Shown here piece after piece: positions 8,425 to 33,788 of a stretch of 64,000 bases of DNA (position 1 is its first letter; each line of letters begins with the position of its first letter). Under the pieces are notes generated by a model that was not told the DNA's origin, did not search any database, and was given only the letters and a program-made list of their open reading frames with translations. The stretch lies in contig JAURWS010000044.1 of the NCBI GenBank assembly GCA_030654835.1, positions 4,964 through 68,963 on the forward strand, given 5' to 3'. The stretch comes from Gammaproteobacteria bacterium (GTDB lineage: Bacteria; Pseudomonadota; Gammaproteobacteria; Pseudomonadales; Pseudohongiellaceae). The position numbers and the translations under genes were made by a program.

Positions 8425-8442
8425 CCTGTTACCTGGCAATGA

Positions 8443-13196: not shown

Positions 13197-13215
13197 GCCT
13201 GGAGAGTCACCTGAC

Positions 13216-14323: not shown

Positions 14324-14330
14324 TACCAGC

Positions 14331-15791
14331 ATGAACAGAATTCCTTCTCAGGAGATTATTCCCGAAGACGTCGATTCCCGCGTTTTCAATCTCTATGAGA
14401 GGAAGGAAAAGATCTACATCCGCAAAATGGAAGGTCTGTTCCAGACCGTGCGGCAGTACACAGGCTGGCCTCTTTTACTCGGCTATTTCCTCGTCCCATG
14501 GCTGCATGTCGACGGCCATCAGGCCATTCTCTTTGACCTTCCGGAGCGCAAGTTCCACATCTTCTGGCTGACATTGTGGCCACAGGATTTCGTGCTGCTG
14601 ATGTGGGTGCTGGCCATCGCCGCCTTCGCGCTGTTCTTCGTCACCACACTGTGGGGGCGCGTGTGGTGCGGCTATACCTGCCCGCAGACCATCTGGACGG
14701 CGATCTTCATGTGGGCCGAGCAGATCACCGAGGGCGAGCGTCACCAGCGCATCAATCTCGACAAGACCCCGTCAATCTTTCATCGCGACGGCCGCAACCG
14801 GGCCGGGTGGAACAAGTTCTGGAGGCGCGGCCTCAAACACGGCATGTGGATGGGCTTCGCCCTGCTGACCGGCGTCACCTTCATCGGCTATTTCTATGGC
14901 ATGCGCGAATTGGTTGGAGAAGCGCTGAGCTGGCAGCTGCCGCTCACAGCAGCCTCGTGGAGCGTCTTCTTCACCCTCGCCACCTACATCAACGCCGGAT
15001 GGCTGCGCGAACACGTCTGCATCTACATGTGTCCATATGCACGCTTCCAGTCCGCGATGTTCGATCGTGACACGCTGATCATCTCCTACGATGAGAAACG
15101 CGGGGAAACGCGGGGCGCCCGCAAACGCAACGTCGACTACAAGGGGCTGGGGCTGGGCGACTGCATCGACTGCACACTGTGCGTACAAGTCTGCCCGACC
15201 GGCATCGATATCCGCGCTGGCCTGCAGTACGAATGCATTGGCTGCGCACACTGCATCGACGCCTGCGACTCCATCATGGAAAAGATGGGCTATGCCAAAG
15301 GGCTGATCTCCTATACGACCGAGAACAAACTCGCCGGTGGCAAATGGACGTGGAAGCGGCCCAAGCTGATCGGCTATGGCGTGGCGCTGCTGGTCATGCT
15401 GCTGTTGTTCGCTATCGTATTGCTGACCCGCACGCCGCTGCGCCTGGATGTGTTGCGGGATCGCGGCCAGCTCTTTCAGCAGGTGGAAGGCGGGCGCATC
15501 GAGAACGTTTACACGCTGAAGATCATCAACATGGATCGCGTGGACCACGAGTACCAGCTGAGCGTAAATGGCCTTCCCGATGCCACACTGGTTCCCAACA
15601 CGCCGATCCGCGTGGTAGCCGGTGACATCAACGATGCCTTGGTGCGGGTGCGGGTCGACCCGGACCAGCTGGAGGATTTCGTGACCACTTTCGAATTCGA
15701 GATCGAGGCACTGACGGACGAACAGGATGGCAGCACACTGCGCGCCCGTGCCGAGAGCCGCTACATCGGCCCGCGCCCGTTACCGAACTGA
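14331..15791 (+). CDS. ccoG: cbb3 oxidase accessory 4Fe-4S protein
   Basis: Ferredoxin-type cysteine clusters CIDCTLCVQVCP and CIGCAHCIDAC plus TM segments. Canonical position after ccoP. Confidence 0.9.
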   Translation: MNRIPSQEIIPEDVDSRVFNLYERKEKIYIRKMEGLFQTVRQYTGWPLLLGYFLVPWLHVDGHQAILFDLPERKFHIFWLTLWPQDFVLLMWVLAIAAFALFFVTTLWGRVWCGYTCPQTIWTAIFMWAEQITEGERHQRINLDKTPSIFHRDGRNRAGWNKFWRRGLKHGMWMGFALLTGVTFIGYFYGMRELVGEALSWQLPLTAASWSVFFTLATYINAGWLREHVCIYMCPYARFQSAMFDRDTLIISYDEKRGETRGARKRNVDYKGLGLGDCIDCTLCVQVCPTGIDIRAGLQYECIGCAHCIDACDSIMEKMGYAKGLISYTTENKLAGGKWTWKRPKLIGYGVALLVMLLLFAIVLLTRTPLRLDVLRDRGQLFQQVEGGRIENVYTLKIINMDRVDHEYQLSVNGLPDATLVPNTPIRVVAGDINDALVRVRVDPDQLEDFVTTFEFEIEALTDEQDGSTLRARAESRYIGPRPLPN

Positions 15792-15835
15792 GGCAAGAAC
15801 CAGGAACCATTTTCAGGAACAAGCGGATACGCCCT

Positions 15836-16354
15836 ATGTCACAGACCACAGCCACCGACCCCAGGCCACACTGGTACCAGCACCGCTGGCCCTGGGTCCT
15901 GATGAGCATCCCCTTTGCGGCGGTGCTGTTCGGCATATTCATGGTCGTGACCGCCCTGCGCTATCCGGACGATGTCGTTGCCGACACCTATTATCGCGAC
16001 GGGCAGGGCATCAATCAGTTGCGCGCACTCGACGAGATGGCGCACACCCTCGGCTTGAGTGCCAGCCTGATCAGCTCGGCGGAGGACGGGCGCAGCCAGT
16101 TGCTGCTCGGCGGCGGCGAAGAAGCGGTGCTGCAGCTGTTCCTCTATCACGTCACCGACAGCAGCGCCGACCGTCGCTACCTCTTCTCGCCAAGGGCGCA
16201 GGGTGTCTATGAGGGTATCTACGAGAGCGACGACGGCACGCTGCCCGCCCTGCTGGCGCAACGTGGCGTCTGGTATCTGGAGCTGCGCGGCGAGCAGGAC
16301 AACTGGCGTCTGCGCAAGCGCGTGGAAACCCCCTTCACGAGGCTGGAGTTCTGA
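15836..16354 (+). CDS. ccoH: FixH/CcoH-family assembly protein
   Basis: 172 aa with one N-terminal TM helix (WPWVLMSIPFAAVLFGIFMVV), lying between ccoG and ccoI. Confidence 0.75.
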   Translation: MSQTTATDPRPHWYQHRWPWVLMSIPFAAVLFGIFMVVTALRYPDDVVADTYYRDGQGINQLRALDEMAHTLGLSASLISSAEDGRSQLLLGGGEEAVLQLFLYHVTDSSADRRYLFSPRAQGVYEGIYESDDGTLPALLAQRGVWYLELRGEQDNWRLRKRVETPFTRLEF

Positions 16355-18816
16355 TGCTGGACAAAGTCAAACACTGCTTCTGCTACCACTGCCGCGCGCT
16401 GATGCCGACAGCCACCGCCCTGACGCTTGAGGTGGACGGGCATACTCGCCTGTTGTGCTGCTCGGGCTGCATGGCCGCCGTGCAATTCATCAACGCGTTG
16501 GACCTGCAGTCCTACTACGATTTTCGTGACAAATGCGCGCCCGTCGCCGGACTGACGGCGCACGCCGCTGGCGCCGGACAGACACTTCCGGAGTTGGCCT
16601 TCGCCGATGCCATCGAGGAGTTAGCGGACGGACGCCGGGCATTGCGCCTGCTGATTCCAGACCTGCGCTGCGCCGCCTGTGTCTGGCTGCTGGAACAGGT
16701 GTTGGGCCGCCAGCGTGGCGTCGAGCAGGTGCAGGTCAGCTTCGCCTCGCGGCGCCTGCGGGTTGAGTTCAACCCGGCCGAAGGCACGTCCGTGCCCGCG
16801 ATCGCACATCTAGTGCAACGCCTTGGCTATCAGCCCGAGCCGGATCTGCCCGATGCAGGCAGGCAGAGTTTCGCCAGCCATCAGCGCAACATGCTGATCC
16901 GTCTGGGCGTGGCTGGCATCGGCATGATGCCAGTGATGATGTTCGCGCTCCCGGCGTACCTGGCAGGTGGCGCAGCCGAGGTTGCATCAGCAAGTAACGC
17001 AGCGGCGATGGACCCCCTTAGCGCGGCGCTGTTGCGCTGGGCCAGCCTCGCCCTCAGCACCCCCGTAGTGCTCTACAGCGCCTTTCCATTCCACCGGGGC
17101 GCCTGGTACGCGCTGCGTCATCGCAGCCTGAGCACGGACTTGCCGGTGTCTATTGCCATTCTGGCAGCCTTCCTGCTGAGCGTGGTCAACACTTTGAATC
17201 AGGTGAGCGAGGTATACTTCGACACGGCCTGCATGTTCACGTTTTTCCTGTTGCTGGGTCGCTATGCTGAATTGCAGTCCCGGCGCCACTTCCAAGAGAG
17301 TCAGGATCTCATGTCGAAGCTGCTGCCGCTGACCGTGCGACGGGTGAACAGCAGCAACGAGGAAACCGTCCCGCTGCGGGACGTCGACGTCGGCGACCTG
17401 CTGCGCGTGCTTCCCGGAGAGACGATTCCTGCCGATGGCGTCGTCGTGAGTGGCCGCAGCAGCGTCAGCGACAGCGCCTTTACCGGCGAGCCGCTGCCCA
17501 GCGTCCGGCAGCCCGGCGCACGGGTGCTGGCGGGCGCCACCAATCACGACGGCGAACTCGTGATCCGCGCCCGCACGCAACCGCAGGACTTTGTGCTGGC
17601 ACAGATCAACCGCCTGTTCGAGCAGGCCTCCCAATACCGTCCACACTGGTCCCGCCTCGCGGACCGGGCAGCGTCCTGGTTCATCGGTGCCGTGCTTGTA
17701 CTCGCAGCTGCGGCCGGCATTTTCTGGGAACTGCGCGGTGCGGACAACGCGCTGATCATCGCCCTGACCGTGCTGGTGGTGGCTTGCCCTTGTGCGCTGT
17801 CGCTGGCGACCCCAGTCGCCAGCACCGTTGCCACCACCACACTGCGTCGACGTGGTGTGGTCATTCGCAACGGAGCCTTCCTTGAGCGGGCGGCGGCGAC
17901 CACCGCCGTGGTCTTTGACAAGACCGGCACGCTCACCGAGGCCCAGCTCCACATCGACAGGATCGTGCCGCTGCATACGCTGGACACGCAGGCCTGCCTC
18001 GCCATCGCGACCGCGCTGGAGCGCCACAGTCATCACCCGATCGCCCGCGCCTTTGCCTGTGACACGGCGCTGACTGCCAGTGCCGTAGTGACGGTGCCAG
18101 GCCAAGGCGTCGAGGGCGAGATAGCAGGCGTTCACTACCGCCTCGGCATAGTCGGCTTCGCATGGCCAAATATCGGCAGCCGCAGCACCACTCTCTCACC
18201 GCCCGAGCAGGATGATGGCCTGTGGGTACTCCTGGCCGCCGAGACACCACTGGCTTGGTTCCGGCTGCAGGATGTCCTGCGCGACGACGCCGCGCAAACC
18301 GTAGACGCCCTGCGGAAACAAGGCATCACCACGGCCATTTTCAGCGGCGACTCGTCAGTGGCGGGTCGACACCTGGCCGAGACACTGCGTGTGGACCAGT
18401 TGCGCACCGGCCTGACTCCTGAACAGAAGATTGCCGCCGTGCGGGCGCTGAACGCCGGGACACCTGTCGGCGGACAGCGGGTCATGATGATCGGGGACGG
18501 TGTCAATGACGCGGGGGCCATGGCGGCCGCAGACACCTCCATCGCCATCTCCCCGCGCGACGTGCTGGTGCAGAACAGTGCCGATGCGACCTTGCTCAAC
18601 CCGAACCTCACCCTGGTGCCGGACGTTCTGCGCTTCGCCAGACGCACGCGCCGCATCATCCGCCAGAACATCGGCTGGTCGCTGGCCTACAATCTGAGCG
18701 TGATTCCCGTGGCGCTGCTCGGCCTGCTGCCTCCGTGGCTCGCCGCGCTCGGCATGAGCCTGTCATCGCTGCTGGTGGTCATGAACGCCTGGCGTCTGCG
18801 TCGGATGGAGGACTGA
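16354..18816 (+). CDS. ccoI: copper-translocating P-type ATPase (FixI/CcoI)
   Basis: CPC TM motif, DKTGTLT phosphorylation site and GDGVNDA hinge. 820 aa. Confidence 0.92.
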   Translation: MLDKVKHCFCYHCRALMPTATALTLEVDGHTRLLCCSGCMAAVQFINALDLQSYYDFRDKCAPVAGLTAHAAGAGQTLPELAFADAIEELADGRRALRLLIPDLRCAACVWLLEQVLGRQRGVEQVQVSFASRRLRVEFNPAEGTSVPAIAHLVQRLGYQPEPDLPDAGRQSFASHQRNMLIRLGVAGIGMMPVMMFALPAYLAGGAAEVASASNAAAMDPLSAALLRWASLALSTPVVLYSAFPFHRGAWYALRHRSLSTDLPVSIAILAAFLLSVVNTLNQVSEVYFDTACMFTFFLLLGRYAELQSRRHFQESQDLMSKLLPLTVRRVNSSNEETVPLRDVDVGDLLRVLPGETIPADGVVVSGRSSVSDSAFTGEPLPSVRQPGARVLAGATNHDGELVIRARTQPQDFVLAQINRLFEQASQYRPHWSRLADRAASWFIGAVLVLAAAAGIFWELRGADNALIIALTVLVVACPCALSLATPVASTVATTTLRRRGVVIRNGAFLERAAATTAVVFDKTGTLTEAQLHIDRIVPLHTLDTQACLAIATALERHSHHPIARAFACDTALTASAVVTVPGQGVEGEIAGVHYRLGIVGFAWPNIGSRSTTLSPPEQDDGLWVLLAAETPLAWFRLQDVLRDDAAQTVDALRKQGITTAIFSGDSSVAGRHLAETLRVDQLRTGLTPEQKIAAVRALNAGTPVGGQRVMMIGDGVNDAGAMAAADTSIAISPRDVLVQNSADATLLNPNLTLVPDVLRFARRTRRIIRQNIGWSLAYNLSVIPVALLGLLPPWLAALGMSLSSLLVVMNAWRLRRMED

Positions 18817-18819
18817 GCC

Positions 18820-19068
18820 ATGGAGACCTTCCTCATATTGATCCCCGTCACCCTCGCGCTGGTCGCGCTGTCACTGTGGGCCTTCGTGTGGTCCGCCCGC
18901 AACGGACAGTTTGAAGATATTGATCGGCAGGCCTGGTCCATCCTATTCGACAATACCGAGGAGGAGCAAAAACAGGAGTTGCAAAAGGAGAGGCATGAGG
19001 AAGCGCGCCAAGACATTGAAGCAGGGGCGCCACTGGATGAGGCCGAGCGCGACGGCGGGATGCACTGA
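18820..19068 (+). CDS. ccoS: cbb3 oxidase maturation protein
   Basis: 82-aa protein, METFLILIPVTLALVALSLWAFVWSARNGQFED.., typical of FixS/CcoS. Confidence 0.85.
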   Translation: METFLILIPVTLALVALSLWAFVWSARNGQFEDIDRQAWSILFDNTEEEQKQELQKERHEEARQDIEAGAPLDEAERDGGMH

Positions 19069-19739
19069 TGGACTTGCTGGCCGCCTTCCTGCTCGGGCTG
19101 TTCAGTGCCCCGCATTGCCTGGCCATGTGCGGAGGCGTGGCCTCGGCGCTGCTGCTGGGCAGCGACGCGGCAGATGAGCGAGCGGCGCGGCGCCCGACAC
19201 CCATCGTCAACGCCTTATGGTTCGGCACCGGCAAGTTACTTGGCTACGGGGCGCTCGGGGCGCTGGCCGGCCTGACTGGAGCCGTGCTGAGTTCGTCGGG
19301 CACGGCTGCGGGGGCAGCGCTGCACTTACTCGCGGGGCTGCTGATGATCGGACTCGGTCTCTACATGACCGGCTGGTGGCTGGGCATTCGCCGCCTCGAA
19401 GCTCTGGGCGGGCGCCTCTGGCAGCCCGTTCTGCGCCTGCTGCGCGGGTTGCAACTGGGCAGCACCGGCAACAAACTCGCTGCCGGCCTGTTATGGGGCT
19501 TTCTCCCCTGCGGCATCGTTTACAGCATGCTGGCGCTTGCTCTCAGTGCAGGCAGCGCGGCGGCCGGCGCCGCCATCATGCTCAGCTTCGGCCTCGGTAC
19601 CCTGCCCTTCGTGCTGGGCAGCGGCGGCGTTCTGCTGGCAGCTGTGCCTCTGCTGCGTCAACAGCGCTGGCGCACGGTGGCGGGGATAGGGCTGATATTG
19701 TATGGCGCCTATGGCATTGCAATGACGCTAAAGCCATGA
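19068..19739 (+). CDS. TauE/SafE-like (DsbD_2-type) membrane protein
   Basis: Polytopic protein with an N-terminal HCLAMCGG motif. Found after ccoS, as in other gammaproteobacteria. Confidence 0.7.
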   Translation: MDLLAAFLLGLFSAPHCLAMCGGVASALLLGSDAADERAARRPTPIVNALWFGTGKLLGYGALGALAGLTGAVLSSSGTAAGAALHLLAGLLMIGLGLYMTGWWLGIRRLEALGGRLWQPVLRLLRGLQLGSTGNKLAAGLLWGFLPCGIVYSMLALALSAGSAAAGAAIMLSFGLGTLPFVLGSGGVLLAAVPLLRQQRWRTVAGIGLILYGAYGIAMTLKP

Positions 19740-22111: not shown

Positions 22112-24274
22112 TCAGAACGTTTTGCGGATCCTCAGCGAAATCTTACGACCGCTGCCGCTGCAGGAATTTTCGATCTCTTCCAGCACGCCTGCTGACGTTC
22201 TGCCGTCGAAGCGCGTCCGCACATTGCAGCGCTCACTGTCGAGGAAGTTCATGGACTCAAGCCGGAACGACGTGCCCCCGAATGCCCGCTTCTCGATAAA
22301 CACCATCATGTTATTGCTGGAGTCGTAGGAAACGATGTCATCAATGTCGATGCGCTTGTTGTTACCGGAGATCGGCGAGTTGTAGTTGAATCCGTAGCTC
22401 AGGCTCTGCGCGCCGACATCGTGGCGGAAGCCGACGCTGTAGAAGCCCCTGCCCCCCATCGCCAGACGCCGCTCCTGCTGCAGAAACGGATCCATCACCT
22501 CGGTGTCCTGCACCTGCAGTCCCGCCGTCAGCATTGCATCGGGCACACCGATAAAACCAAAGCGCACACTCGCATCGATGTCTATGCCGTAACGCCAGGC
22601 GTCGCCAATATTGCCCGGCGCAGATACCAGACTGGTGGGGCTGCCGGAAATATCCACGCGGTCTATTGCGTCCTGAATGTCGTGATAGAAAAAGCGTGTG
22701 TTTAGCACTCCACCATCCTGCGGCAGGCGATACTCCATGTTGAACTCGTAGCGCCAGGACTGCTCCTGCACCAGATCCGGGTTGCCGGCATCGGCGTCCT
22801 GTTCGTCATCCATATTATCGGTGCGCGCCACAAAGTCGCTGAAACTCAGTTGCGAAACGTATTTTTCCACGGAAGCCCGTAGCTGAAACGATGAGGTCAC
22901 ATCGAAGCGATAATCCGCGCGTGGCCGCAGGAAGTCGAAGTCACGACTCTTGTCGACACCCACGCCGTTCTGCGCAATCCCTGACTGTTCAAGAATCAAT
23001 GAACTCTCCAGCGTCATGCGATCGCTGAGCTGCCAGTTGTGCATGGCAAATGCTTCGTAGCGAATCTCTTCGACGGTCGATTCGGCGTTCGGCAATGTAA
23101 TCGGCGTCAGCCCGCCGTGAGCGGCGGAGCGGATTCCGGAGGAGCTCAACACGGCATAGCGCAGATTCGAATCGAGAATTGTCTGTGCGCGTTCAATGCC
23201 CAGCTCCAGCCCCTGCGTGTCATTCAGACTCCAGCTGTAAGAGGTGCGGGCAATGCGTTCGCGATCCCGGCGGGCCGAATCGATATAGAGATTCTTGGTC
23301 GCATCGACGTCGGCTACGACAAAACGCTCGCGGGTGCTGTCATTCACGCCATCGTTGACGATGAAGAGAAATTTGTAGCGGCCGCCGTTCTGGAACTCGT
23401 GTTCGTAATCGCCGCCCACTTCCCAGCTGTTGCGCTCGGCAGCGATGTCCTCACGTTCCAGTCTGTACTGAAACGGTGTGGTATTGAAGTCAGTGATTCT
23501 GCGCTCGACTGCGCTGGGTGGATTGGATTCATTCCAGGAAGCGTTGAACCGCACGTCATCAAACTCGCCCAACTGATAGCCCATGCTGGCACTGACCTGG
23601 GTCGAAGTCTCCTCGCGGATGTCGATCTGATGCACGTAATCATTCGGAGAAAAATCGCCATTGATCGCGTAGTCCTTGCGATAGCGATTCTCATAGCGCG
23701 GCTCGGATTCGACGCTGAAGCGGTAGTCCAGCGCTCCGCTCTGAGCGCCATAAGACAGTGATCCGCCTGGCTTGAAGGTGTCATCGTCATACAGATCGGC
23801 ATTCACCTCGGCAGTCAGACTGGAGCGGGATTCCGCCTCCAGCAGCACGATATTGACCACTGGTCCGGCACTGCGCACGTCGAGTTCGTTGGAGGTGCCA
23901 CGAATGATTTCAATGTAGGAAACCTGACTGGCGGAGATGCGCGACAACTGACTTGAGCCCTCATTCTCTTTGCCTGCCACGCGCTTGCCGTCGATCAGAA
24001 TCTGATCCCCAGCGCCGAGGCCACGGCTGTTGCCGCCACCACCATTGCCATTGAGGGCGAGACCGATACCGGGAATGCGATTGAGCATGTCGTTGACGGA
24101 AACCGGTGAGTATTGCGCGAAGTAGTCGGCCTCGTAGCGGACCGTGGAATCGCTTGCAGTGGCCACATCAGTCGGGGACTGCGCCAGCGTCTGGCTGGCA
24201 ATTGCGGCGGCGGACAACAAGAGGGCAAGACGGATACTGTGAACCAAGTTTTTGTGCGTTGTTCCAGATTGCAA
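22112..24274 (-). CDS. TonB-dependent receptor
   Basis: TTG start at 24274 with AAGGAG 9 nt upstream. Signal peptide ..IRLALLLSAAAIASQTLAQS, plug ..DQILIDGKRVAGK.., terminal ..LRIRKTF. The rest of the 1142-aa track ORF is antisense to the next gene. Confidence 0.85.
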   Translation of the reverse strand: MQSGTTHKNLVHSIRLALLLSAAAIASQTLAQSPTDVATASDSTVRYEADYFAQYSPVSVNDMLNRIPGIGLALNGNGGGGNSRGLGAGDQILIDGKRVAGKENEGSSQLSRISASQVSYIEIIRGTSNELDVRSAGPVVNIVLLEAESRSSLTAEVNADLYDDDTFKPGGSLSYGAQSGALDYRFSVESEPRYENRYRKDYAINGDFSPNDYVHQIDIREETSTQVSASMGYQLGEFDDVRFNASWNESNPPSAVERRITDFNTTPFQYRLEREDIAAERNSWEVGGDYEHEFQNGGRYKFLFIVNDGVNDSTRERFVVADVDATKNLYIDSARRDRERIARTSYSWSLNDTQGLELGIERAQTILDSNLRYAVLSSSGIRSAAHGGLTPITLPNAESTVEEIRYEAFAMHNWQLSDRMTLESSLILEQSGIAQNGVGVDKSRDFDFLRPRADYRFDVTSSFQLRASVEKYVSQLSFSDFVARTDNMDDEQDADAGNPDLVQEQSWRYEFNMEYRLPQDGGVLNTRFFYHDIQDAIDRVDISGSPTSLVSAPGNIGDAWRYGIDIDASVRFGFIGVPDAMLTAGLQVQDTEVMDPFLQQERRLAMGGRGFYSVGFRHDVGAQSLSYGFNYNSPISGNNKRIDIDDIVSYDSSNNMMVFIEKRAFGGTSFRLESMNFLDSERCNVRTRFDGRTSAGVLEEIENSCSGSGRKISLRIRKTF

Positions 24275-24601
24275 CGGTGTGCGCTCCTTTGAATAAGATG
24301 ATCCCTGGATACTGCTGATACCGATTCTGGTGGCGGCTTGGTGAACTGCGGGGCATGCGGGAAAACGACCCCAAGGCTCGGAGTGTAGCGCAGACCAGCG
24401 GTGCAATACCGTCACAAATTGTGAGGCGAATCTGACAGATTGGACACAATTGCCACGCTGTTGGTTATTTCCTCCGTTGGCGCCCGGCTCCCGGGGCGGT
24501 TGTTTCGATGGCGGAAAGGTGCTTGAATCCGCCCCACACGGGCCTGCCGGGCCACCGCATTCGGCCTTATCGTCAGGCCACACAAACGCAAGAGGTAGAC
24601 C

Positions 24602-26599
24602 ATGAGCGCGAGCATCCCCTCCTGCCAGCACTGGCGCAGCAAACGTGACAGCGACGACATTCTCTGGCTGTTCCTCGATCGTCAGGGAGAGTCGGTCAAT
24701 GCACTCTCCCGCGCAGTGCTGCAGGAATTCGACAGCCTCATCGCCTATGCCACACAACACCTGCCGCGCGGCGTTGCGATTCTCTCTGGCAAATCCAGCG
24801 GCTTCATCCTGGGCGCCGATATTCGTGAATTTGGTAACCTCACCGATCCCGTCGAGGTCACCCAGGCGATTTCCCAAGTGCACGACATGTTCACGCGCCT
24901 CGAACGCCTGTCCTGCCCGACAGTTGCGGCGTTCGATGGCTACTGTCTGGGGGGTGGTCTGGAGCTGGCACTCAGTTGCAGCTACCGGATTGCGCGCGAT
25001 GTACCTGCTACCAAGATCGGATTCCCCGAGATCCAGCTCGGCATCTTCCCGGGCTTTGGTGGCTCTGCGCGCTCGGTGAGCCAGATCGGCGGGCTGAAGG
25101 CGATGGAACTGATGCTTTCCGCTCGCCAGGTCAATGCCCGGCAGGCGCGGGCGCTGGGACTGGTGGACGAGGTCATCGGACGCCACGAAGAACTGTATTG
25201 GGCCGCCCGCCGCGCCATTCTGACCAAGCGCCGCAGCCGTGGGCCGAGCCTGCTGGGTAGACTCAGCAATCTGGCACCGGCCCGCAGGCTGCTGGCTCAG
25301 CAGATGCGCAAGCAGACAGCACTGCGCGCACGCGAAGCTCATTATCCGGCGCCTTATCGATTGATCGACACCTGGGAGCGGTACGGTGGTGATCGCGCCG
25401 TCATGATGAAGGAGGAGGCACGGGCCGTCGGACGGCTGATGGTGACGCCACAGGCGGCGGGACTGCGACACGTCTTCGGCCTGATGGATCGCCTGAAGAA
25501 AGAAGGCAAGCAAAGCGAATTTCGCGCCCGCCGTGTGCATGTCGTTGGCGCTGGCGTGATGGGCGGGGATATTGCCGCCTGGTGTGTGCTGCAGGGGCTG
25601 GAGGTGAGCCTGCAGGACCGCGAGATGAAGTACATCGAGCCTGCACTCAAGCGCGCAGAGACCCTGTTCCGCAAGAAACGGCTCGATCCCGCCGCTGTCA
25701 GAGCAGCGCTGGACAGACTGCGCCCGGACGTCAACGGTGACCTGGTGTCACAGGCCGACGTGGTGATTGAGGTCATCGTCGAGCGCCTCGACGCCAAGCA
25801 GGCGCTACTGCGCAGCCTTGAGCCGCGCCTGAAGGCAGGCGCGGTGCTGGCGACCAATACCTCCTCGATTCCGCTGGAGGAACTCGCGACGGCTCTGCAG
25901 CAGCCGGAGCGCCTGATCGGACTGCACTTCTTCAACCCGGTCGCGAAGATGCCACTGGTGGAAGTAGTCAGGGGCACCAACAGTGACGAGGAAATGCTGC
26001 GCAAAGGGGCGGCATTCTGCGGCCAGATCAACCGTTATCCGCTGCCGGTGAAAAGCAGCCCAGGCTTTCTCGTCAATCGCATACTCGCCCCCTACATGCT
26101 GGAGGCACTGATCATTCATCAGGAAGGCATACCTATAGAAGCCATCGATGCCGCCGCCGAAGAGTTCGGCATGCCCATGGGGCCGGTCGAACTGGCCGAC
26201 ACCGTGGGTCTGGACGTCTGCCTCATGGTCATGAACACACTGGGGCAGCGTGGCGATCAAGCTGATCGCAACCCATTGATTGCAAAGGCCACAGAACAGA
26301 TTCGCGAGCTTGCAGATAAAGGTAGCCTGGGACGCAAGACCGGTCAGGGCTTTTACCGCTGGGAGCAGGACAAAGCCAGCAAACATCGGGAAAAGGCCGC
26401 CGGGCAGGACTTGCAAGCTATCGGCGCACGGCTGATCAAGGCCTACACGGACGAATGCGTGAAAGCGCTGGCCGATGGCATCGTCACCGACGCCGATCTT
26501 CTGGATGCGGGAATGGTCTTCGGCACGGGCTTCGCGCCATTTCGCGGTGGCCCCATGCACTACCTCAATGTTTTGGCGGGAGAACATCAGCATGACTGA
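24602..26599 (+). CDS. bifunctional enoyl-CoA hydratase / 3-hydroxyacyl-CoA dehydrogenase (FadB/FadJ-like)
   Basis: N-terminal crotonase fold (..GFILGADIREF..CLGGGLELAL..) followed by an NAD-binding VHVVGAGVMGGDIA dehydrogenase domain. Confidence 0.88.
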   Translation: MSASIPSCQHWRSKRDSDDILWLFLDRQGESVNALSRAVLQEFDSLIAYATQHLPRGVAILSGKSSGFILGADIREFGNLTDPVEVTQAISQVHDMFTRLERLSCPTVAAFDGYCLGGGLELALSCSYRIARDVPATKIGFPEIQLGIFPGFGGSARSVSQIGGLKAMELMLSARQVNARQARALGLVDEVIGRHEELYWAARRAILTKRRSRGPSLLGRLSNLAPARRLLAQQMRKQTALRAREAHYPAPYRLIDTWERYGGDRAVMMKEEARAVGRLMVTPQAAGLRHVFGLMDRLKKEGKQSEFRARRVHVVGAGVMGGDIAAWCVLQGLEVSLQDREMKYIEPALKRAETLFRKKRLDPAAVRAALDRLRPDVNGDLVSQADVVIEVIVERLDAKQALLRSLEPRLKAGAVLATNTSSIPLEELATALQQPERLIGLHFFNPVAKMPLVEVVRGTNSDEEMLRKGAAFCGQINRYPLPVKSSPGFLVNRILAPYMLEALIIHQEGIPIEAIDAAAEEFGMPMGPVELADTVGLDVCLMVMNTLGQRGDQADRNPLIAKATEQIRELADKGSLGRKTGQGFYRWEQDKASKHREKAAGQDLQAIGARLIKAYTDECVKALADGIVTDADLLDAGMVFGTGFAPFRGGPMHYLNVLAGEHQHD

Positions 26600-28235: not shown

Positions 28236-29195
28236 ATGAAAATGAACAATCGGACAGTTGCAGGCCTTACACTGGGATTTTTCCTGGTGGCGCTGGCCAG
28301 TATAATGCCCGCCCACGCCCAAACATCCCCGCTGGGAGACAAGAACCAGCGTCTGCTGGGTCTGACCACCCCTACCGGCCTGACGGTAATCCCGATATTC
28401 GAGGGAGCGTACGAAAATGAAGACGGCTCAATTTCTTATTCTTTCGGATACTTGAACCGTAACACCAGTGAAGTCATAGAAACTGCGTTCGGTGAAGGCA
28501 ACTACGTTGAGCCTGCACAGTTCGATGGCGTACAGCCCACGACCTTCCAGACCGGCCGCCACACTGGCGTTTTCACAATTACCGTCCCTGCTTCAATGCG
28601 CGACGGCGAAGTCTGGTGGCACATCAAATCCGGAGACAACGATATCCTCAAGGTACCGGGTCGCCGCGGCAAGCTGGGTTACACCCTCGACTTGAAGCCA
28701 CGTCCTGCGGGCTCCGTTGCTCCAATCGTCTGGGCAACAGAAGGCGGACCTAAAGGCACAGATCCAATGGGCCTGCACGTCGAAGAAGTCCTGAGTGTGA
28801 AAGCCGGTGCCCCAGTGACGCTGTCTGTCCACACCGAAGACGTGTCAGTGCGTGACATGACCGACGACCGTAACGCCAAAGGCATCCCCGTTCGCGTGTC
28901 CTGGAGCAAGTACCAGGGCCCGGTAGGTGCAGAAGTGGCCTTCGAGCGTCACCCCTCCTCTGAAGCTCCAGCAGAAGTGAGCGAAGCCGCTGCCCGTCGT
29001 GGCGCCCAGCCAGCTGGTCCAGACGAGACTAAAATTGCCAGCGGCAAAGGCACTGCAAGTGTCATCGCCACCTTCGCACAACCTGGTGACTACGTTATCC
29101 GTACCATGGTAGATAACTGGGACGCCACTGACAGCACAGAAGCTGACCAGTGCTGCTGGAGCAACATGTACCAGAAGATCACTGTAACCCCGTAA
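28236..29195 (+). CDS. exported hypothetical protein (P1)
   Basis: GGAGAG lies 8 nt upstream of the ATG. Signal peptide MKMNNRTVAGLTLGFFLVALASIMPAHAQ. The body looks beta-rich and the C-terminus contains ..DQCCWSNMYQKITVTP. Confidence 0.7.
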   Translation: MKMNNRTVAGLTLGFFLVALASIMPAHAQTSPLGDKNQRLLGLTTPTGLTVIPIFEGAYENEDGSISYSFGYLNRNTSEVIETAFGEGNYVEPAQFDGVQPTTFQTGRHTGVFTITVPASMRDGEVWWHIKSGDNDILKVPGRRGKLGYTLDLKPRPAGSVAPIVWATEGGPKGTDPMGLHVEEVLSVKAGAPVTLSVHTEDVSVRDMTDDRNAKGIPVRVSWSKYQGPVGAEVAFERHPSSEAPAEVSEAAARRGAQPAGPDETKIASGKGTASVIATFAQPGDYVIRTMVDNWDATDSTEADQCCWSNMYQKITVTP

Positions 29196-29239
29196 TTACC
29201 GGGTTTCAGCCAGCAATCTACAGTACTCTGCAATACCAA

Positions 29240-29281
29240 GAAGGCCCGCCAGCCCCGTGAATACGGGGGTGGCGGGCCTTC
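29240..29281 (+). terminator. 19-bp GC-rich hairpin between P1 and P2 (attenuator or processing-type, no U-tract)
   Basis: gaaggcccgccagccccgt / gaat loop / acgggggtggcgggccttc, with one mismatch. It is followed by gtcacaatt, which is not T-rich. Confidence 0.5.
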
Positions 29282-29379
29282 GTCACAATTCGTTGCATAG
29301 AATTCCACGAAGCAGTGGACAAGCGCGGGCCGTCGAATTACATTGCGGCCACTGCGTACCCAATTACGAGGAGAGAATC

Positions 29380-30765
29380 ATGAGAACAATGCAGTGTTGG
29401 AAACAGAAACAGCGCACAGGGAAAGCCATTCTTGGCTTGACAGTCCTTGCTGCTCTGGGGCTCACCGCCCAGGCTCAGGCTCAGTCCGGCGCTCTGTCAA
29501 TTGACGCGGGTCAAGTGACATATGCCGATCACGTTGCACAGATCATCACTGATAACTGTGTAGTCTGCCACCGCGAAGGCGGTGTTGGCCCAATGCAACT
29601 CACCAACTATGAGCAAGTCCGTCCTTGGGCACCGCTCATTCAGTACCGAGTTGAAAACAGGGAAATGCCCCCTTATGCATACGACCACGGCATCGGTATT
29701 CAGGAGCTGCAAGGCGACTGGAGACTTGAGCAGAGCGAGATCGACACTATCGTTGCATGGGTTCAGCAAGGCGCACCGGAAGGTGATTGGGGCGATCGCA
29801 GCCACCCAGTAGCCAACCTGCCAAACCCAGACGAGTGGACTTTCGCCGCTCAATTTGGCGCACCAAGTCTGGTCCTGGACTCCACCCCGATTGACGTGCC
29901 AGCTCTGGGTAACGACATGTGGCACCGTCCATACGTCATGACTGGCCTGACCACTGATCGCTGCATCAAGGCGATTCAAGTGAAGCCGGCCGGCAATGCC
30001 AAGGCTGTTGTACACCATGCCAACTCAAACGTGGAAGTCCTGAATGAGGAAGGCGAGTACGAAGACTATGGTATGTTCACCGAGTACGCGATGGGCAAAT
30101 GGGGCGAGATAGCGCCGGAAGGCGTATGCCGCACTCTGCCAGCCAATGCGCGCATTCGTTGGGACATCCACCTCTTCCCAGGTGGTGTAGGCGCAACTGC
30201 TCCGGGCACCGTCATTGAAGACAACGTTGTTGAAATCGGCGTATGGCTGCACCCTGAAGGCTATGAAGAAGTGGCCAAATACAAGCAGGATCTGAAGTTG
30301 TACAGACTCAACATGGGCGAGCTGATTGTTCCTCCGAATGGCACTGCCATGACTCAGGGCTTCCACTCGTTCGACCACCCTGTGCGTATCGACAGCTTCC
30401 AGCCACACGGCCACCTGCGTATGCGTCAAGCGTCTCTGGAGATTTTCTACCCAGCGACTGGACGTACTGAGCAGATCAGCCAAGTGTCAAACTGGAGTGC
30501 TACTTGGCACCACAGCCACCTGTACGAAACTGATGTCGCTCCACTGCTCCCAACTGGTGCAGTTCTGGTTATCAAGCAGTGGTACGACAACACTGCCAAT
30601 AACCCGAACAACCCTGATCCAGATTTCTGGGTAGTGGAAGGCAGCCGTACAGCTGACGAAATGACTCACGCCTGGATCGCGGTGACTCACCTCGACCAAG
30701 CAGGCTTCGACGAACTCGTTGCCCAGCGTGAAGCAGCCAAGCAGCGCTCAGTTGCTGGTCAGTAA
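29380..30765 (+). CDS. exported haem-c (CxxCH) domain fused to a PHM/DBH-like putative copper monooxygenase fold (P2)
   Basis: AGGAGA SD. Signal peptide ..LTAQAQAQS. CVVCHREGG..REMPP module. Then VVHHA, WDIHLFP, QPHGHLRM and TADEMTH in the order and approximate spacing I recall for the PHM copper ligands. Confidence 0.7.
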   Translation: MRTMQCWKQKQRTGKAILGLTVLAALGLTAQAQAQSGALSIDAGQVTYADHVAQIITDNCVVCHREGGVGPMQLTNYEQVRPWAPLIQYRVENREMPPYAYDHGIGIQELQGDWRLEQSEIDTIVAWVQQGAPEGDWGDRSHPVANLPNPDEWTFAAQFGAPSLVLDSTPIDVPALGNDMWHRPYVMTGLTTDRCIKAIQVKPAGNAKAVVHHANSNVEVLNEEGEYEDYGMFTEYAMGKWGEIAPEGVCRTLPANARIRWDIHLFPGGVGATAPGTVIEDNVVEIGVWLHPEGYEEVAKYKQDLKLYRLNMGELIVPPNGTAMTQGFHSFDHPVRIDSFQPHGHLRMRQASLEIFYPATGRTEQISQVSNWSATWHHSHLYETDVAPLLPTGAVLVIKQWYDNTANNPNNPDPDFWVVEGSRTADEMTHAWIAVTHLDQAGFDELVAQREAAKQRSVAGQ

Positions 30766-30809
30766 GCTCTAAAGACGAGCGTCAGGTGTCAAACCTGGCG
30801 CTCAGATAG

Positions 30810-30850
30810 AAAAAAGGGAGGAAGATCAGCAGATCTTCCTCCCTTTTTTT
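30810..30850. terminator. bidirectional rho-independent terminator
   Basis: A6 - gggaggaagatc - agca - gatcttcctccc - T7. A perfect 12-bp stem flanked by A and T runs, between the convergent genes P2 and P3. Confidence 0.85.
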
Positions 30851-30911
30851 ATGCCTCAACGATACAGACCTGTTGGCCAATCCTCTCTCTCTTAGCCCGC
30901 GACACTCACTG

Positions 30912-32651
30912 TCAGTGCGTATCTCTGTGATAGGTCAGGTAGCCAGTAAACATCTCATCCTCACTCGTCACCCCTGACGCGATCTCTTCCATCGGGTCCG
31001 GGTTGAAAGGATTGGACACCGAGTTGTCGAATGCGCCAGAGACTACCACGCGACTGCCTGCCGGCACCTTCACTGGGTGCTCCAGCACATAGTGCGGCTG
31101 CCACGCGTAGTTATAGGCTGGAATGCTGAGAATATCTTCCGTCGTCCCATCCGGGCGTTCGACAGAGAATTTCACATTCTTGCCGCGTTCATTCATGCGC
31201 GCTCTGACGCCAGTGATGATAACGTCTTCATTGAAGACATGCTCGGCCTGCATCGGAATGTCATTCTGATCGGCAGGCAAAACAAACTGTGCAGAAACAG
31301 TCTGCACAAGTCTCTCCTGCAGCTCACCGTCAGCATTGTCTGCGAGGTATAGACCTATTTCGGTGATGCTGTTCAGCTCCGCGCCCATTCCCACATACTG
31401 GAACTGCATCGACAGCTTGTGCCCCTTCGGAATAAACAATCCGGAGCCTTCGGCAAACTCTGCGACAATCGCGCGCCCAGGTGAATAGCTTTCGAGAAAG
31501 CGCCGCGTAGTATGAGTACTGGTGCGCTCAGCACCCCAGAAGTCCTCTCCAGGAGCCGTCACATAGGCGACCATCTGATGCAGCGCACCATTGCCCGTGG
31601 GCTGATATTGAACGGCGCGCACCCAGGTGTCCTCGGTGAATGGCAGCTCGAGGTCCAGATAAATGTCCTCAAGAATTCCGTTGACAGGCACCTTCTGCAG
31701 CGGTGTGCTGATGATCAGATCGGGCTCACCGATGAGCCACGGCTGCCGCTCCTCGAACTTGAGTTCGGCCAGCGGGTCTGTCGGGCTATCGCCGCGAGGG
31801 CCGCCCGCGTTGATCCAATGCACAACCGTTTGAATATCGGCGGTGGACAGATAGCGAGCGGTCGTCGAATGGCCTACATCAGGGTCAATCTGAGCTGGCG
31901 GCATCCGCTTGTTCAGTATCACTTCCTTGATCATCGGGGACCAGCCCAGCAATGACACATGCCGATCCATCGCGAAGGGGCCTGCGCCCCACTGGCGGTG
32001 ACACTCCACACAATTTTCAATAATGATAGGGGCGACTTCGGTGGCATAGTCCGGCACTTTCTCCTTGTGCGCGTCGCGTACCGGGAAACTCAAGGCGCAT
32101 CCATCGCCAGTGCCTGTCTTCACGGTGTCCCTTATTGGCCCAGCCAACAATCCGGCCAGCGTCTGGTCGAGCTCGCTGCTGACGGCACCGCTGTAAAACA
32201 GCGACATCCGGTCGGGGTTCAGAACCCGCACCTCGCCGGCAACAGCCAGCCCCAGTGCTTCCGATATCAACTGCCCCGAGTCCTGCAAAACCGGCAAGCC
32301 AAGGTCGAGCGCAGCCAGTTCGGCACGGCCACGACCCTGAGAGTCGATCAAGAGAAACTCTATCCCCTGCTCCGCGTAGCGTGACTGCAAGGCTTTGTAG
32401 TCCTCGACCATGGAGCCCATGTTCTGACAGGTCGCGGCATAAGACATCAACACGACAGCCTGCCTGTGCTGATAACGGCTCAACTGATGAAATTTGCCAT
32501 CACTGTCCATCAATGCAAAATCACCGGTGCGATCCAGTGCCGCATTGGCACCGTTCGCCGCCAGACCTAGCATGACGCTGAAACTGAGAAGCTTGACTCT
32601 GGTGTTCACAATATACTGCCTCGAAAAAGTGGTGATGCGACGACTCTTCAA
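30912..32651 (-). CDS. exported thioredoxin-like + haem-c (CxxCH) + degenerate PHM-like protein (P3, paralog of P2)
   Basis: The signal peptide is ..LLSFSVMLGLAANGANA. A redoxin-like segment follows (..AVVLMSYAATCQNM..). The haem module CVECHRQWG..KRMPP is also present. The C-terminal half aligns to P2 by eye. The start may be the GTG at 32609. Confidence 0.7.
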   Translation of the reverse strand: MKSRRITTFSRQYIVNTRVKLLSFSVMLGLAANGANAALDRTGDFALMDSDGKFHQLSRYQHRQAVVLMSYAATCQNMGSMVEDYKALQSRYAEQGIEFLLIDSQGRGRAELAALDLGLPVLQDSGQLISEALGLAVAGEVRVLNPDRMSLFYSGAVSSELDQTLAGLLAGPIRDTVKTGTGDGCALSFPVRDAHKEKVPDYATEVAPIIIENCVECHRQWGAGPFAMDRHVSLLGWSPMIKEVILNKRMPPAQIDPDVGHSTTARYLSTADIQTVVHWINAGGPRGDSPTDPLAELKFEERQPWLIGEPDLIISTPLQKVPVNGILEDIYLDLELPFTEDTWVRAVQYQPTGNGALHQMVAYVTAPGEDFWGAERTSTHTTRRFLESYSPGRAIVAEFAEGSGLFIPKGHKLSMQFQYVGMGAELNSITEIGLYLADNADGELQERLVQTVSAQFVLPADQNDIPMQAEHVFNEDVIITGVRARMNERGKNVKFSVERPDGTTEDILSIPAYNYAWQPHYVLEHPVKVPAGSRVVVSGAFDNSVSNPFNPDPMEEIASGVTSEDEMFTGYLTYHRDTH

Positions 32652-32654
32652 GAC

Positions 32655-33788
32655 TTACGGCATCGGGTAGTTGCTGACATGGCCTTGTTCTGTGGCAACC
32701 CTTGAACGGTTGCGTTCAGACTGCTCCATGCCGCCCAGTGCCGGACCGCCCTGATTGAAGATGCCACCACGCAATACGAACTGGAGATAGCTCATTTCGT
32801 TATCCATGTACCCTTCCTTGTCGATGAATTTCTCCAGGATCTCCTCAATGGCAGCACCACGATCCGGTACGGCTGGATGAGCAAGAACGTCGCCGATGAC
32901 AACCTTCAGGGCCGATATGTTATCAAGCACATAAGCGGCGCCAGGATGGAAGCTGTAGAGGTTGGGCGCAATCGCCGGCATGGTAGGAATGTCTGTCGGA
33001 AGAGAAATCATGCTGCCATGGGCACGGGCGATCTTGTCGATGTAAATATCGGCTACGGTCTGCATGCCCGCCTCCAAAGCTGCATCACTTGCGGCCGTCA
33101 TGGTGATTTCGAGCATTGCCAACTGCATCCACTGCGACGCCCAGGTCATGCCGCTCAGCTGCGGGAAACCGACCCTGAAGGCGTAGGCGTAGGGGTGTTC
33201 GGAGAGCAGGTCACCGGATTTTGGTGAAGCTGCCACCGACAGCTCGTCGTTGCTCAAATACTCGGTCAGCGCCTCATCAACTGCCGTGTGTTTGTCGTAG
33301 ATAGAGTTGTCGAGATAGATCTCCAGCAGGGTGTCTGCGAACTCACGACCTCTGGTCAATACTGCGATTGCCTTTGGGGGAATGCTGCCGTTGGCCTCCA
33401 GAAGCCGTTGCACTTCCTCTTGACTGAATTCTGTCCGCACCATGGCTTGCAGACCTGGCGTCGCACGACTTTCGAAGAGTCGGTGCGGCCCAAGCATCGC
33501 CAAGTGGTTTGCCGAAGTGTGGTAATGCGAGTACTGAGCTTCCTGCAGATCTACTATGGCATCGATCAAAAGCCCCTTGCCGATCTCGGCCTCGGGCGAT
33601 TGATTGGTCAGTGCCACCTCGTCGAAGACTGCCGCCTGCAGCACTTCTGCGACGTTCAGATAATTCGCCAGCTCAGGAAAGCGGCTTTGCAGAATCGACT
33701 CACTGGACTGAGCCTGCAGAGAGGCAGGCAGGACTAACCCGGCACATACAACAACCGGTAGTATTTTTTGCAATGTTTGTCTGAACAT
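32655..33788 (-). CDS. exported hypothetical protein (P4)
   Basis: Signal peptide MFRQTLQKILPVVVCAGLVLPASLQAQS. The composition looks largely helical. Its stop lies 3 nt before the P3 start, so the two are probably an operon. Confidence 0.65.
   Translation of the reverse strand: MFRQTLQKILPVVVCAGLVLPASLQAQSSESILQSRFPELANYLNVAEVLQAAVFDEVALTNQSPEAEIGKGLLIDAIVDLQEAQYSHYHTSANHLAMLGPHRLFESRATPGLQAMVRTEFSQEEVQRLLEANGSIPPKAIAVLTRGREFADTLLEIYLDNSIYDKHTAVDEALTEYLSNDELSVAASPKSGDLLSEHPYAYAFRVGFPQLSGMTWASQWMQLAMLEITMTAASDAALEAGMQTVADIYIDKIARAHGSMISLPTDIPTMPAIAPNLYSFHPGAAYVLDNISALKVVIGDVLAHPAVPDRGAAIEEILEKFIDKEGYMDNEMSYLQFVLRGGIFNQGGPALGGMEQSERNRSRVATEQGHVSNYPMP

Follow-up and report, generated by a model that had tools for sequence, protein, structure and literature searches.

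A four-gene gammaproteobacterial locus encoding a predicted cytochrome c-fused relative of PHM and DBH within a candidate periplasmic heme-copper system

In a contig of a gammaproteobacterium of the family Pseudohongiellaceae (JAURWS010000044.1, assembly GCA_030654835.1), two pairs of genes face each other at positions 28236-33788 of the 64,000-nucleotide stretch that we analyzed, hereafter the window. We denote the products of this cluster P1 to P4. A sequence-only reading of the same DNA had singled out the cluster as a possible undescribed periplasmic redox system, and this proposal is supported by the heme c attachment motifs of P2 and P3, the set of ligands for two copper sites (CuH and CuM) in P2, and the thioredoxin-fold domain of P3. 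That reading had missed two points around which the present analysis is built, namely, that P2 and P3 are paralogous proteins related to the copper monooxygenases peptidylglycine alpha-hydroxylating monooxygenase (PHM) and dopamine beta-hydroxylase (DBH), and that the cluster consists of two two-gene modules, P1-P2 and P4-P3.

The genes and other features of the locus are listed in Table 1. By exact look-up, the four open reading frames (ORFs) correspond to the NCBI calls MDO9319260-63 on the same contig (78 kb) of this metagenome-assembled genome (MAG). All remaining ORFs in 28236-33788 are overlapping shadows, so that the ORF listing yields no credible fifth gene and no mobility gene, in agreement with the sequence-only reading, which had also placed the four genes, on these strands, and had considered all of them exported. 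By inspection of the translations, each of the four N-termini combines a charged n-region, a hydrophobic h-region and an A-x-A-type cleavage site, and thus looks like a Sec signal peptide; by eye, the putative cleavage sites lie between LVALASIMPAHA and QT in P1, AALGLTAQAQA and QS in P2, and VLPASLQA and QS in P4. Independently of this inspection, the heme c motifs of P2 and P3 require export. The 3-nucleotide gap that had been described between P4 and P3 is an artefact of the longest ORF, which runs to the TTG codon at 32651. Homologues of P3 are 561-565 amino acids long, the PGAP call is 565 amino acids long, and the alternative GTG start at 32609 is preceded by GAGG and followed by a clean signal peptide. 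From these observations, the true start of P3 most likely lies 42 nucleotides inside the longest ORF, leaving a gap of 45 nucleotides. Residue numbers of P3 nevertheless refer to the 579-amino-acid frame throughout.

Table 1. Genes and regulatory features of the four-gene cluster, in window coordinates (aa, amino acids)
Feature	Position	Strand	Description and basis
P1	28236..29195	+	319 aa, putatively exported; ORF, identical to MDO9319260.1 'hypothetical protein'
Strong GC-rich hairpin	29240..29281	+	just past the P1 stop codon; sequence and fold
Conserved GTCACAAnTnGTTGCA motif	29282-29297	+	invariant or nearly so in 12 relatives
Sigma-70-like promoter before P2	29316..29344	+	TGGACA at 29316, 17-nucleotide spacer, TACATT at 29339-29344; promoter scan
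P2	29380..30765	+	461 aa, putatively exported; ORF and start; NCBI annotation hypothetical
Bidirectional intrinsic terminator	30809..30850	both	gAAAAAAGGGAGGAAGATC-AGCA-GATCTTCCTCCCTTTTTTt; sequence and RNA fold
P3	30912..32609	-	565 aa, putatively exported; NCBI 'redoxin domain-containing protein'; longest ORF to TTG 32651, 579 aa
P4	32655..33788	-	377 aa, putatively exported; ORF, MDO9319263.1 'hypothetical protein'

P2 is the protein from which the biochemical character of the system can best be read. It contains a class-I-type cytochrome c domain, with the heme motifs C60-x-x-C63-H64 (encoded at 29557-29571) and M96-P-P, that scores 21.9 bits against the Pfam Cytochrom_C cut-off of 21.3, followed by a core with the CuH ligands H212, H213 and H264 and the CuM ligands H343, H345 and M428. 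In an alignment of 56 diverse family members with 25-60% identity, H212, H264, H343 and H345 are invariant, H213 and M428 are at least 90% conserved, and C60, C63, H64 and M96-P-P are invariant or nearly so; these heme, CuH and CuM groups are the only invariant or near-invariant polar positions of the family. The single-sequence PDB search returned nothing useful. By contrast, the profile built from the alignment reached human DBH at E 5.2e-9 (4zel) and rat PHM at E 1.5e-8 (1opm/1phm/1sdw). The match runs from profile position 156 to 418, takes in both catalytic domains and superposes the HH, H, HxH and M columns, such that the CuH columns coincide with PHM H107, H108 and H172, and the CuM columns with PHM H242, H244 and M314 (motifs HTH and DEM(C) of PHM and DBH). 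The Pfam domain Cu2_monoox_C was found in 21 of the 56 members and Cu2_monooxygen in 3. The family is large: the full HMMER search with P2 gave 9,755 representative clusters (50% identity) at E<=1e-3 and 4,121 at E<=1e-10.

We therefore assign P2, at the level of sequence, to the copper type II monooxygenase superfamily, as a cytochrome c-fused member with the full ligand set that belongs to a remote bacterial branch and is not an orthologue of PHM or DBH. Copper binding and O2-dependent hydroxylation are predicted from the ligands. Covalent attachment of heme c is predicted likewise, given that the CxxCH motif, the distal methionine and the signs of export are all present. P2 often occurs in 2-4 diverged tandem copies. 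In six loci from Pseudohongiella and Pseudomonadales MAGs (L062, L073, L077, L081, L082 and L087), a single P1 is followed by 3-4 diverged copies of P2, which are ~64-70% identical to the P2 of the window, a pattern typical of substrate-diversifying enzymes.

P1 belongs to a family of at least 239 homologues, none of them named. As with P4, the sequence-only reading recognized no family for it, and scans of the single sequence and of 62 family members gave none in Pfam or NCBIfam; there is no PDB sequence match either. The single-sequence scans of P1 and P4 yielded nothing but noise, namely PKD at E 0.046, TetR_C_31 at 0.15 and part of a TMAO demethylase. The AlphaFold2 (AF2) model of P1, with a mean predicted local distance difference test score (pLDDT) of 89.7, consists of two tandem Ig/FnIII-like beta-sandwiches, and a Foldseek search of the PDB retrieved only generic Ig/FnIII tandems, such as RbmA, with template modelling (TM) scores of 0.25-0.33. 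The sole two cysteines of P1 form a vicinal pair, C306-C307, within the motif DQCCWSN, and are invariant in the family alignment.

The association of P1 with P2 is close. Among the loci with enough flanking sequence, P1 adjoins P2 in 56 of 58, in either order and across Gammaproteobacteria, Gemmatimonadota, Acidobacteriota and Alphaproteobacteria, and natural fusions exist in several arrangements: P1-P2 (P0373), P2-P1 (P0381 and P0386), and a split form in which the N-terminal domain of P1 precedes P2 and the C-terminal domain follows it (P0389). None of these four fusions contains a second signal peptide, and the fused P1 domains of P0381 and P0386 are devoid of the Cys-Cys-Trp motif. By the Rosetta-stone argument, the fusions indicate that P1 and P2 would form one complex, in which P1 is probably a non-catalytic partner subunit. 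P2 is by a wide margin the better conserved of the two, with cross-phyla identities of 58-85% vs 41-50% for P1. In L004 and L005, a P1 homologue with 53% identity (8001-8921) is flanked by the cytochrome c maturation operon ccmABCDEFGH on one side and by a chemotaxis cluster on the other; the nearest 8 kb lack a P2.

P3 is a paralogue of P2 (26% identity over 399 amino acids, E 2e-30) in which a thioredoxin/AhpC-TSA fold precedes the cytochrome c and PHM-like domains. Its homologues number at least 822, and their only names are 'redoxin domain-containing', 'peroxiredoxin' and 'cytochrome c'. The N-terminal domain passes the AhpC-TSA threshold (PF00578, 29.8 bits vs the 26-bit cut-off, E 6.5e-7), and the C-terminal core gives a sub-threshold hit to Cu2_monoox_C (E 4.5e-4, 20.2 bits vs the 23-bit cut-off). 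The single-sequence PDB search with P3 gave nothing useful; the family profile reaches thioredoxin-fold proteins only, namely 3u5r (uncharacterized, the best match), 2ywi and ResA. The thioredoxin-fold domain, whose closest known counterparts are the Sco/TlpA-type proteins of cuproenzyme assembly and the AhpC/TSA peroxiredoxins, has an invariant set of Cys, His and Met residues, consisting of the single cysteine C75, in the motif SYAxxCxxM, together with H55, H62, M69 and M78. It differs from these families in that the motif holds no second cysteine, so that neither a CxxC or CxxxC dithiol nor a peroxiredoxin-type PxxxT/SxxC motif (PxxxTxxC in the classical form) is present.

The heme motifs of P3, C214-x-x-C217-H218 and R-M250-P-P, are invariant, and P3 is, by motif, a c-type cytochrome with predicted heme binding. 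The copper sites are a different matter. All 44 aligned members have R-x-N (RARMN or RAKMN) in place of the H-x-H of CuM, with M567 retained, and the three CuH histidines, present in most members, are reduced in the subclade of the window to H358, with H359Q and H418Q. Thus, P3 is a derived and probably non-canonical member of the superfamily, whose relationship in fold, given its similarity to P2 and to Cu2_monoox_C, holds.

P4, with at least 487 homologues, none named, is the most isolated of the four proteins. No Pfam match was found in any of 59 members, the single sequence has no Pfam or NCBIfam hit above noise, and the PDB offers no sequence match and a best fold match of E 0.33. Neither P4 nor P1 shows Pfam, NCBIfam, PDB-sequence or fold similarity to the known copper chaperones CopC, PCuAC, CusF and Sco, and neither family matches any characterized one; such matches would have weakened the proposal of the sequence-only reading. 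The AF2 model of P4 is all-alpha (pLDDT 77.9, predicted TM score 0.79). Invariant in the family are S87-H-Y-H90, H95, H198, H257, L263-P-x-D-I-P and LRGGIxNxGGPA, among which S-H-Y-H, H95, H257 and LPxDIP are located in low-confidence, flexible loops of the model.

Alignment of distant relatives of P4 separates two subtypes by gene context: next to P3, P4 carries SHYHxxxxH and a C-terminal ENPHxSxxPM, and next to P1-P2, it carries the Met-rich MSMAQMMAMMAMM or MDMHSMHGGGMDMDMG at the SHYH position and a C-terminal MEMGMxHxMIM. By analogy with copper-binding proteins, these flexible His/Met-rich motifs suggest copper handling, and P4 is probably a copper-handling partner of the PHM-like proteins. 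It resembles CopC/PcoC, PcoE, CusF and the Met-rich inserts of CopA/PcoA in being exported, in its flexible Met-/His-rich stretches and in having CopC neighbours in some loci, but differs from them as a 377-amino-acid, all-alpha protein that has a strongly conserved folded core and matches none of them in sequence or fold. The P4-P3 pair of L008 and L011 has CopC genes at its flanks; in these large gammaproteobacterial contigs, 1-2 CopC-domain genes are followed by P4-P3 and then by a 194-amino-acid AhpC/TSA redoxin, and L008 additionally has a gene for a DJ-1/PfpI-CopC fusion behind P4-P3.

The modular organization emerges from the comparison of genomes. A scan of species-representative genomes with P1 yielded 467 stretches with a P1 relative, of which the best 80, all MAGs, were examined. 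These 80 come from Gammaproteobacteria (Pseudohongiellaceae, Pseudomonadales and OM182), Gemmatimonadota, Acidobacteriota (Bryobacterales and Terriglobia) and one alphaproteobacterium of the Maricaulaceae. In a metagenome scan with P4, the strict count puts P3 directly downstream of P4 in 38 of 46 loci, and admitting overlapping coordinates raises this to 41; in the remaining loci, P4 stands beside P2/P1-type genes. Operons of the form P1-P2-P4 and P4-P1-P2, without P3, occur in three phyla, and one locus (L153) has P2-P1-P4'-P4-P3 on a single strand. All four families are found together, in differing orders, in the distant lineages L149, L153, L159 and L168. The gene content is thus that of one functional neighbourhood composed of two two-gene modules, as far as genomic association can tell, and the co-occurrence of the four families that the sequence-only reading implied holds strongly across phyla and several gene orders.

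Neighbourhood clustering revealed no conserved component beyond the four families. The recurrent neighbours are restricted to particular lineages and include a TonB receptor, a Trp-halogenase-like protein, SapC, DUF6445, GntR, MFS transporters, PQQ and GMC dehydrogenases, a 335-amino-acid secreted protein and an NHL propeller; none of these neighbours lies in the window. Together, they lend the neighbourhood a loosely catabolic flavour. In six marine gammaproteobacterial MAGs (L042, L049, L051, L052, L053 and L072), P2-P1 lies inside a cluster of GntR, Trp-halogenase-like, DUF6445, SapC and TonB-dependent receptor genes, an arrangement that hints at an imported substrate. Five loci from three phyla have a gene for an exported NHL-repeat beta-propeller next to P1/P2 or close by (L040, 6506-7624; L048, 16403-17614; L063, 12734-13726; L087, 7650-8885; L090, 17533-18663).

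Five contigs deposited as 'Klebsiella pneumoniae' or 'uncultured Klebsiella sp.' MAGs (L017, L021, L023, L025 and L037) carry the Pseudohongiellaceae-type locus, with a P1 66-70% identical to that of the window; these labels are almost certainly taxonomy or binning errors. Within the window itself, a complete cbb3 oxidase locus with ccoN, ccoO, ccoP, ccoG, the copper ATPase gene ccoI and a gene for a DsbD_2-family protein is located at 11038-19739, at least 8.5 kb upstream of the cluster. A functional tie to ccoNOQP/ccoGHIS, including the CcoI copper pump, was considered and dropped, since the cco genes fall outside the conserved neighbourhood.

Codon usage sets P1 and P2 apart, as the sequence-only reading had noticed by eye, offering very high expression or a different origin as explanations. 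Taking the codon sets named there and computing minor/(minor+major) for each gene, we obtained fractions of 0.587 for P2 and 0.51 for P1, compared with a mean of 0.28 (standard deviation 0.08) for the other genes of the window; P4 is intermediate (0.41) and P3 ordinary (0.305). The G+C content of third codon positions (GC3) is likewise lower in P2 (0.595) and P1 (0.609) than in the other window genes (mean 0.72). The TonB-receptor control at 22112-24200 was read out of frame, and its codon values are to be disregarded. This region is part of a 1142-amino-acid minus-strand ORF at 22112-25540 that overlaps the fadJ-like gene by ~940 nucleotides; only its C-terminal part, with the Plug domain and TonB-receptor barrel from ~residue 468, looks real, so that the true start lies well downstream of the first start codon.

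The codon bias of P1 and P2 is gene-specific and is kept in orthologues from genomes with GC3 values between 0.5 and 0.78; in syntenic orthologues, the fraction is 0.62 vs 0.38 (L006), 0.64 vs 0.30 (L030) and 0.45 vs 0.21 (L050). In high-GC Gemmatimonadota, the sign of the bias is reversed, with P1/P2 GC3 at 0.89 vs 0.77 for the neighbours. Furthermore, the gene order fadJ-like, thiolase, P1, P2, P3, P4, NhaP2-type antiporter is kept in relatives down to ~51% P1 identity. Synteny, the persistence of the bias in orthologues and its inversion in high-GC phyla together favour high expression over foreign origin; the bias is best read as the stronger-than-average kind that highly expressed genes show, and P2 in addition has a strong Shine-Dalgarno sequence and a 5' untranslated region that are conserved. 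Of the two explanations offered, then, the first gains ground, the bias suggesting high expression of P1 and P2, and the second loses it: a recent foreign origin of the cluster is unlikely, and recent horizontal transfer was rejected on the grounds of synteny and of the bias conserved in orthologues. 

The spacers of the cluster contain two folded elements and a conserved promoter-like block. Between the convergent P2 and P3 genes lies an A-/T-run-flanked, GC-rich hairpin with 18 perfect pairs and one G-U (a 19-pair stem), a 4-nucleotide loop and A6/T7 flanks; the whole convergent spacer folds with -57.3 kcal/mol (z = -6.35). By its sequence and predicted fold, this element is a textbook bidirectional intrinsic terminator of both convergent units, as previously proposed. 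The consensus terminator scan missed it, the stem including the A/T runs, and it was located by eye and by folding. An Rfam scan of 27-35 kb gave chance sub-threshold matches on this hairpin and nothing else.

P1 and P2 are separated by 184 nucleotides (29196-29379), and a 196-nucleotide segment covering this spacer folds with -79.7 kcal/mol (z = -4.99). The strong hairpin just past P1 could be a partial terminator or an mRNA-stabilizing 3' structure. Most of the syntenic relatives that were folded have a hairpin of differing sequence in the same place, most clearly L006, L014, L016, L018, L023, L029, L030 and L032. Downstream of it, the GTCACAAnTnGTTGCA motif, both promoter hexamers, the 5' untranslated region element ACTGC(T)CACCCA and the GAGGAGAGG Shine-Dalgarno sequence show little or no variation across 12 relatives, and the surrounding sequence varies; the centre of the GTCACAAnTnGTTGCA motif is ~61 nucleotides upstream of the predicted P2 transcription start, near 29351. 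P2 probably has its own promoter, and this arrangement suggests that it is transcribed apart from P1, possibly under an activator. The plus-strand operon P1-P2 of the sequence-only reading hence stands with regard to strand and order, but, with a hairpin and a conserved promoter-like element in the spacer, a simple operon is doubtful.

The interpretation that we favour, with confidence somewhat above even, is that the locus comprises two linked modules of a widespread, uncharacterized periplasmic heme-copper system, in which P1-P2 would be the enzyme and P4-P3 an accessory or derived unit. Under this scheme, P2 would be exported and acquire heme c in the periplasm, and its cytochrome domain would draw electrons from soluble or membrane-bound periplasmic respiratory carriers, in place of ascorbate. 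Electrons would then pass from heme c to CuH (H212, H213 and H264) and on to CuM-O2; O2 would be activated at CuM (H343, H345 and M428), and a C-H bond of a periplasmic substrate hydroxylated. P1 would serve as a permanent, stoichiometric, non-catalytic subunit that aids substrate binding or stabilizes P2, in the way that a DOMON domain goes with the DBH core. P3 and P4 would most likely acquire, reduce and deliver copper, or maintain the redox state of the monooxygenase; alternatively, P3 may be a derived enzyme. The domain homologies, the conserved ligands, the linkage of the genes, the fusions and the codon bias are observations; copper binding by P4, a P1-P2 complex, the course of the electrons, the part played by P3 and the class of substrate are inferred.

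With PHM, DBH and tyramine beta-monooxygenase (TBM), the copper type II ascorbate-dependent monooxygenases, P2 shares the two-domain beta-sandwich core and all six ligands, which follow one another in identical order (HH...H for CuH, HxH...M for CuM), P3 being a paralogue. P2 differs from these enzymes in being bacterial and predicted to be periplasmic, in the fused c-type cytochrome where the eukaryotic enzymes use ascorbate, in lacking the peptidyl-glycine residues, and in needing, or at least always accompanying, a separate two-beta-sandwich protein, P1; P3 differs further in that it lacks the CuM histidines. The likeness of P1 to the DOMON domain of DBH, that is, a beta-sandwich beside or fused to a PHM-type core, is an analogy only, as P1 has two domains, a vicinal Cys-Cys pair and no sequence or specific fold match to DOMON. 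Transfer of single electrons from a heme domain to a copper site, without a small-molecule reductant, is familiar from cellobiose dehydrogenase acting on LPMO and from cytochrome c-fused copper nitrite reductases. These systems presumably use other copper folds and heme types; in P2 the fusion is covalent and involves a PHM-type core.

Several observations weigh against this interpretation. The link to PHM and DBH required the family profile: P2 alone falls below every Pfam Cu2_monooxygen and Cu2_monoox_C threshold, with no match at E<=1. PHM R240, N316 and Y318, which in the PHM substrate complex hold the carboxylate and backbone of the peptidyl-glycine, correspond to Q341, H430 and W432 in P2, in columns that vary across the family. 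Because the glycine-carboxylate residues are not conserved, the substrate of PHM cannot be transferred to P2, which, by this residue test, is not a peptidylglycine enzyme. Electrons could also travel the opposite way, with the substrate as donor and the heme as acceptor. Classic metal ligands are scarce in P1, and Cys-Cys is missing from some of its fused domains; the solitary P1 homologue beside the ccm operon is an exception to the P1-P2 rule. The P3 of the window is devoid of five of the six copper ligands and may have a function unrelated to copper catalysis. The invariant folded core of P4 (H198, E227, D289-N290 and LRGGIxNxGGPA) suggests an active site or a tight interface rather than a simple chaperone.

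Our searches found no paper with biochemical, expression or genetic data on any of the four families, no relevant paper on bacterial cytochrome-fused PHM/DBH-like enzymes, and nothing relevant on Pseudohongiella and copper. A 2020 survey puts PHM and DBM among the eukaryote-only cuproproteins (PMC7435645), and bacteria go unmentioned in a review of PAM evolution (PMC6529398).

We weighed several other accounts of the locus, none of which is favoured by the evidence. One of the two that survive best, improbable as it is in our estimate, is copper homeostasis or detoxification: the heme-copper proteins would oxidize or sequester periplasmic Cu(I), with P4 as a copper sponge and no organic substrate. 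CopA/PcoA multicopper oxidases act with CopC and PcoE on periplasmic Cu(I), and the Met-/His-rich flexible motifs of P4, the CopC genes flanking P4-P3 in L008 and L011, the Cys, His and Met residues of the P3 thioredoxin-fold domain, and the ccoI copper ATPase gene ~10 kb upstream in the window are all in keeping with such a role. However, none of the sampled neighbourhoods has genes for a copper efflux pump, CusABC, a multicopper oxidase or a copper sensor, and the cco genes lie outside the conserved neighbourhood. Moreover, the P2 ligand set is that of an O2-activating, uncoupled two-copper site, and the tandem arrays of 2-4 diverged P2 beside TonB receptors, MFS transporters and PQQ/GMC dehydrogenases form a catabolic pattern.

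To the same low degree of likelihood, P1 might be the substrate rather than the partner of P2, which would modify it, for example by converting Cys-Cys-Trp to a protein-derived redox cofactor or metal site, the matured P1 being the product of the system. There are precedents, given that MauG builds tryptophan tryptophylquinone (TTQ) and MbnH builds the kynurenine copper site of MbnP, which has a beta-sandwich fold like that of P1. Such maturation would account for the invariant DQCCWSN motif with the only two cysteines of P1, for the strict adjacency of P1 and P2, and for the single P1 that often goes with several P2 copies. It does not sit well with the stable fusions in both orders or with the split form that wraps the P1 domains around P2, which a permanent complex fits better, nor with the loss of Cys-Cys-Trp from the fused P1 domains of P0381 and P0386 or the much stronger conservation of P2 than of P1.

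Within the preferred two-module interpretation, a variant that we rate as unlikely assigns a more intimate role to the second pair: P3 and P4 might together make up a composite metalloenzyme, with P4 contributing in trans the copper ligands missing from P3. This idea derives from the facts that every P3 has R-x-N yet keeps M567 and the heme, that the P3-linked P4 has an invariant H-Y-H and H95 on a loop, and that the P2-linked P4 is Met-rich at that position. If true, a PHM-type active site would be split over two polypeptides, alongside P1-P2, a cytochrome-fused PHM/DBH enzyme wired to the respiratory chain.

Bacterial peptide amidation in the manner of PAM, with P2 hydroxylating exported peptides at their C-terminal glycine and another enzyme, a lyase, completing the reaction, is less probable still. 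P2 is homologous to PHM, and the NHL propeller encoded close to P1/P2 in five loci hits the lyase (PAL) domain of PAM with E 1.9e-12 (3fvz). The propeller is, however, more similar to the NHL domains of TRIM71, and the match is generic to the repeat; furthermore, the NHL gene is absent from the window and was seen in no more than 5 of ~50 distant loci, there is no evident gene for a precursor peptide, and the counterparts of R240, N316 and Y318 are not conserved, as detailed above. Finally, we regard as very improbable indeed that the two pairs are unrelated neighbours or a recently acquired island with foreign codon usage, for, although the GC3 of P1 and P2 is below that of their neighbours and P1-P2 and P4-P3 are each found alone in many genomes, the gene order from fadJ to NhaP2 is conserved, the same bias recurs in orthologues and reverses its sign in high-GC phyla, the four families come together in differing orders, P4 replaces P3 beside P1-P2 in three phyla, and mobility genes are missing from the locus.

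PHM and DBH, hormone-making enzymes of animals, are the standard textbook examples of uncoupled two-copper monooxygenases and are treated as eukaryotic and ascorbate-dependent. The locus described here represents a very large bacterial branch of these enzymes, with ~9,750 clusters at 50% identity, that has peculiarities of its own: a built-in cytochrome c as the predicted reductant, a dedicated beta-sandwich partner, a degenerate paralogue and a helical His/Met-rich protein. P1 and P4 are two unannotated families that are now placed in a defined context, the latter without a detectable structural relative. Judging by their codon bias, these genes are probably expressed at high levels in abundant freshwater and marine oligotrophs, such as Pseudohongiellaceae and OM182, as well as in Gemmatimonadota and Acidobacteriota of soils and lakes. 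The system would provide a soluble bacterial model, tractable both genetically and biochemically, for long-range electron transfer into CuH/CuM, and it points to an unrecognized periplasmic hydroxylation chemistry, which may act on dissolved organic matter.

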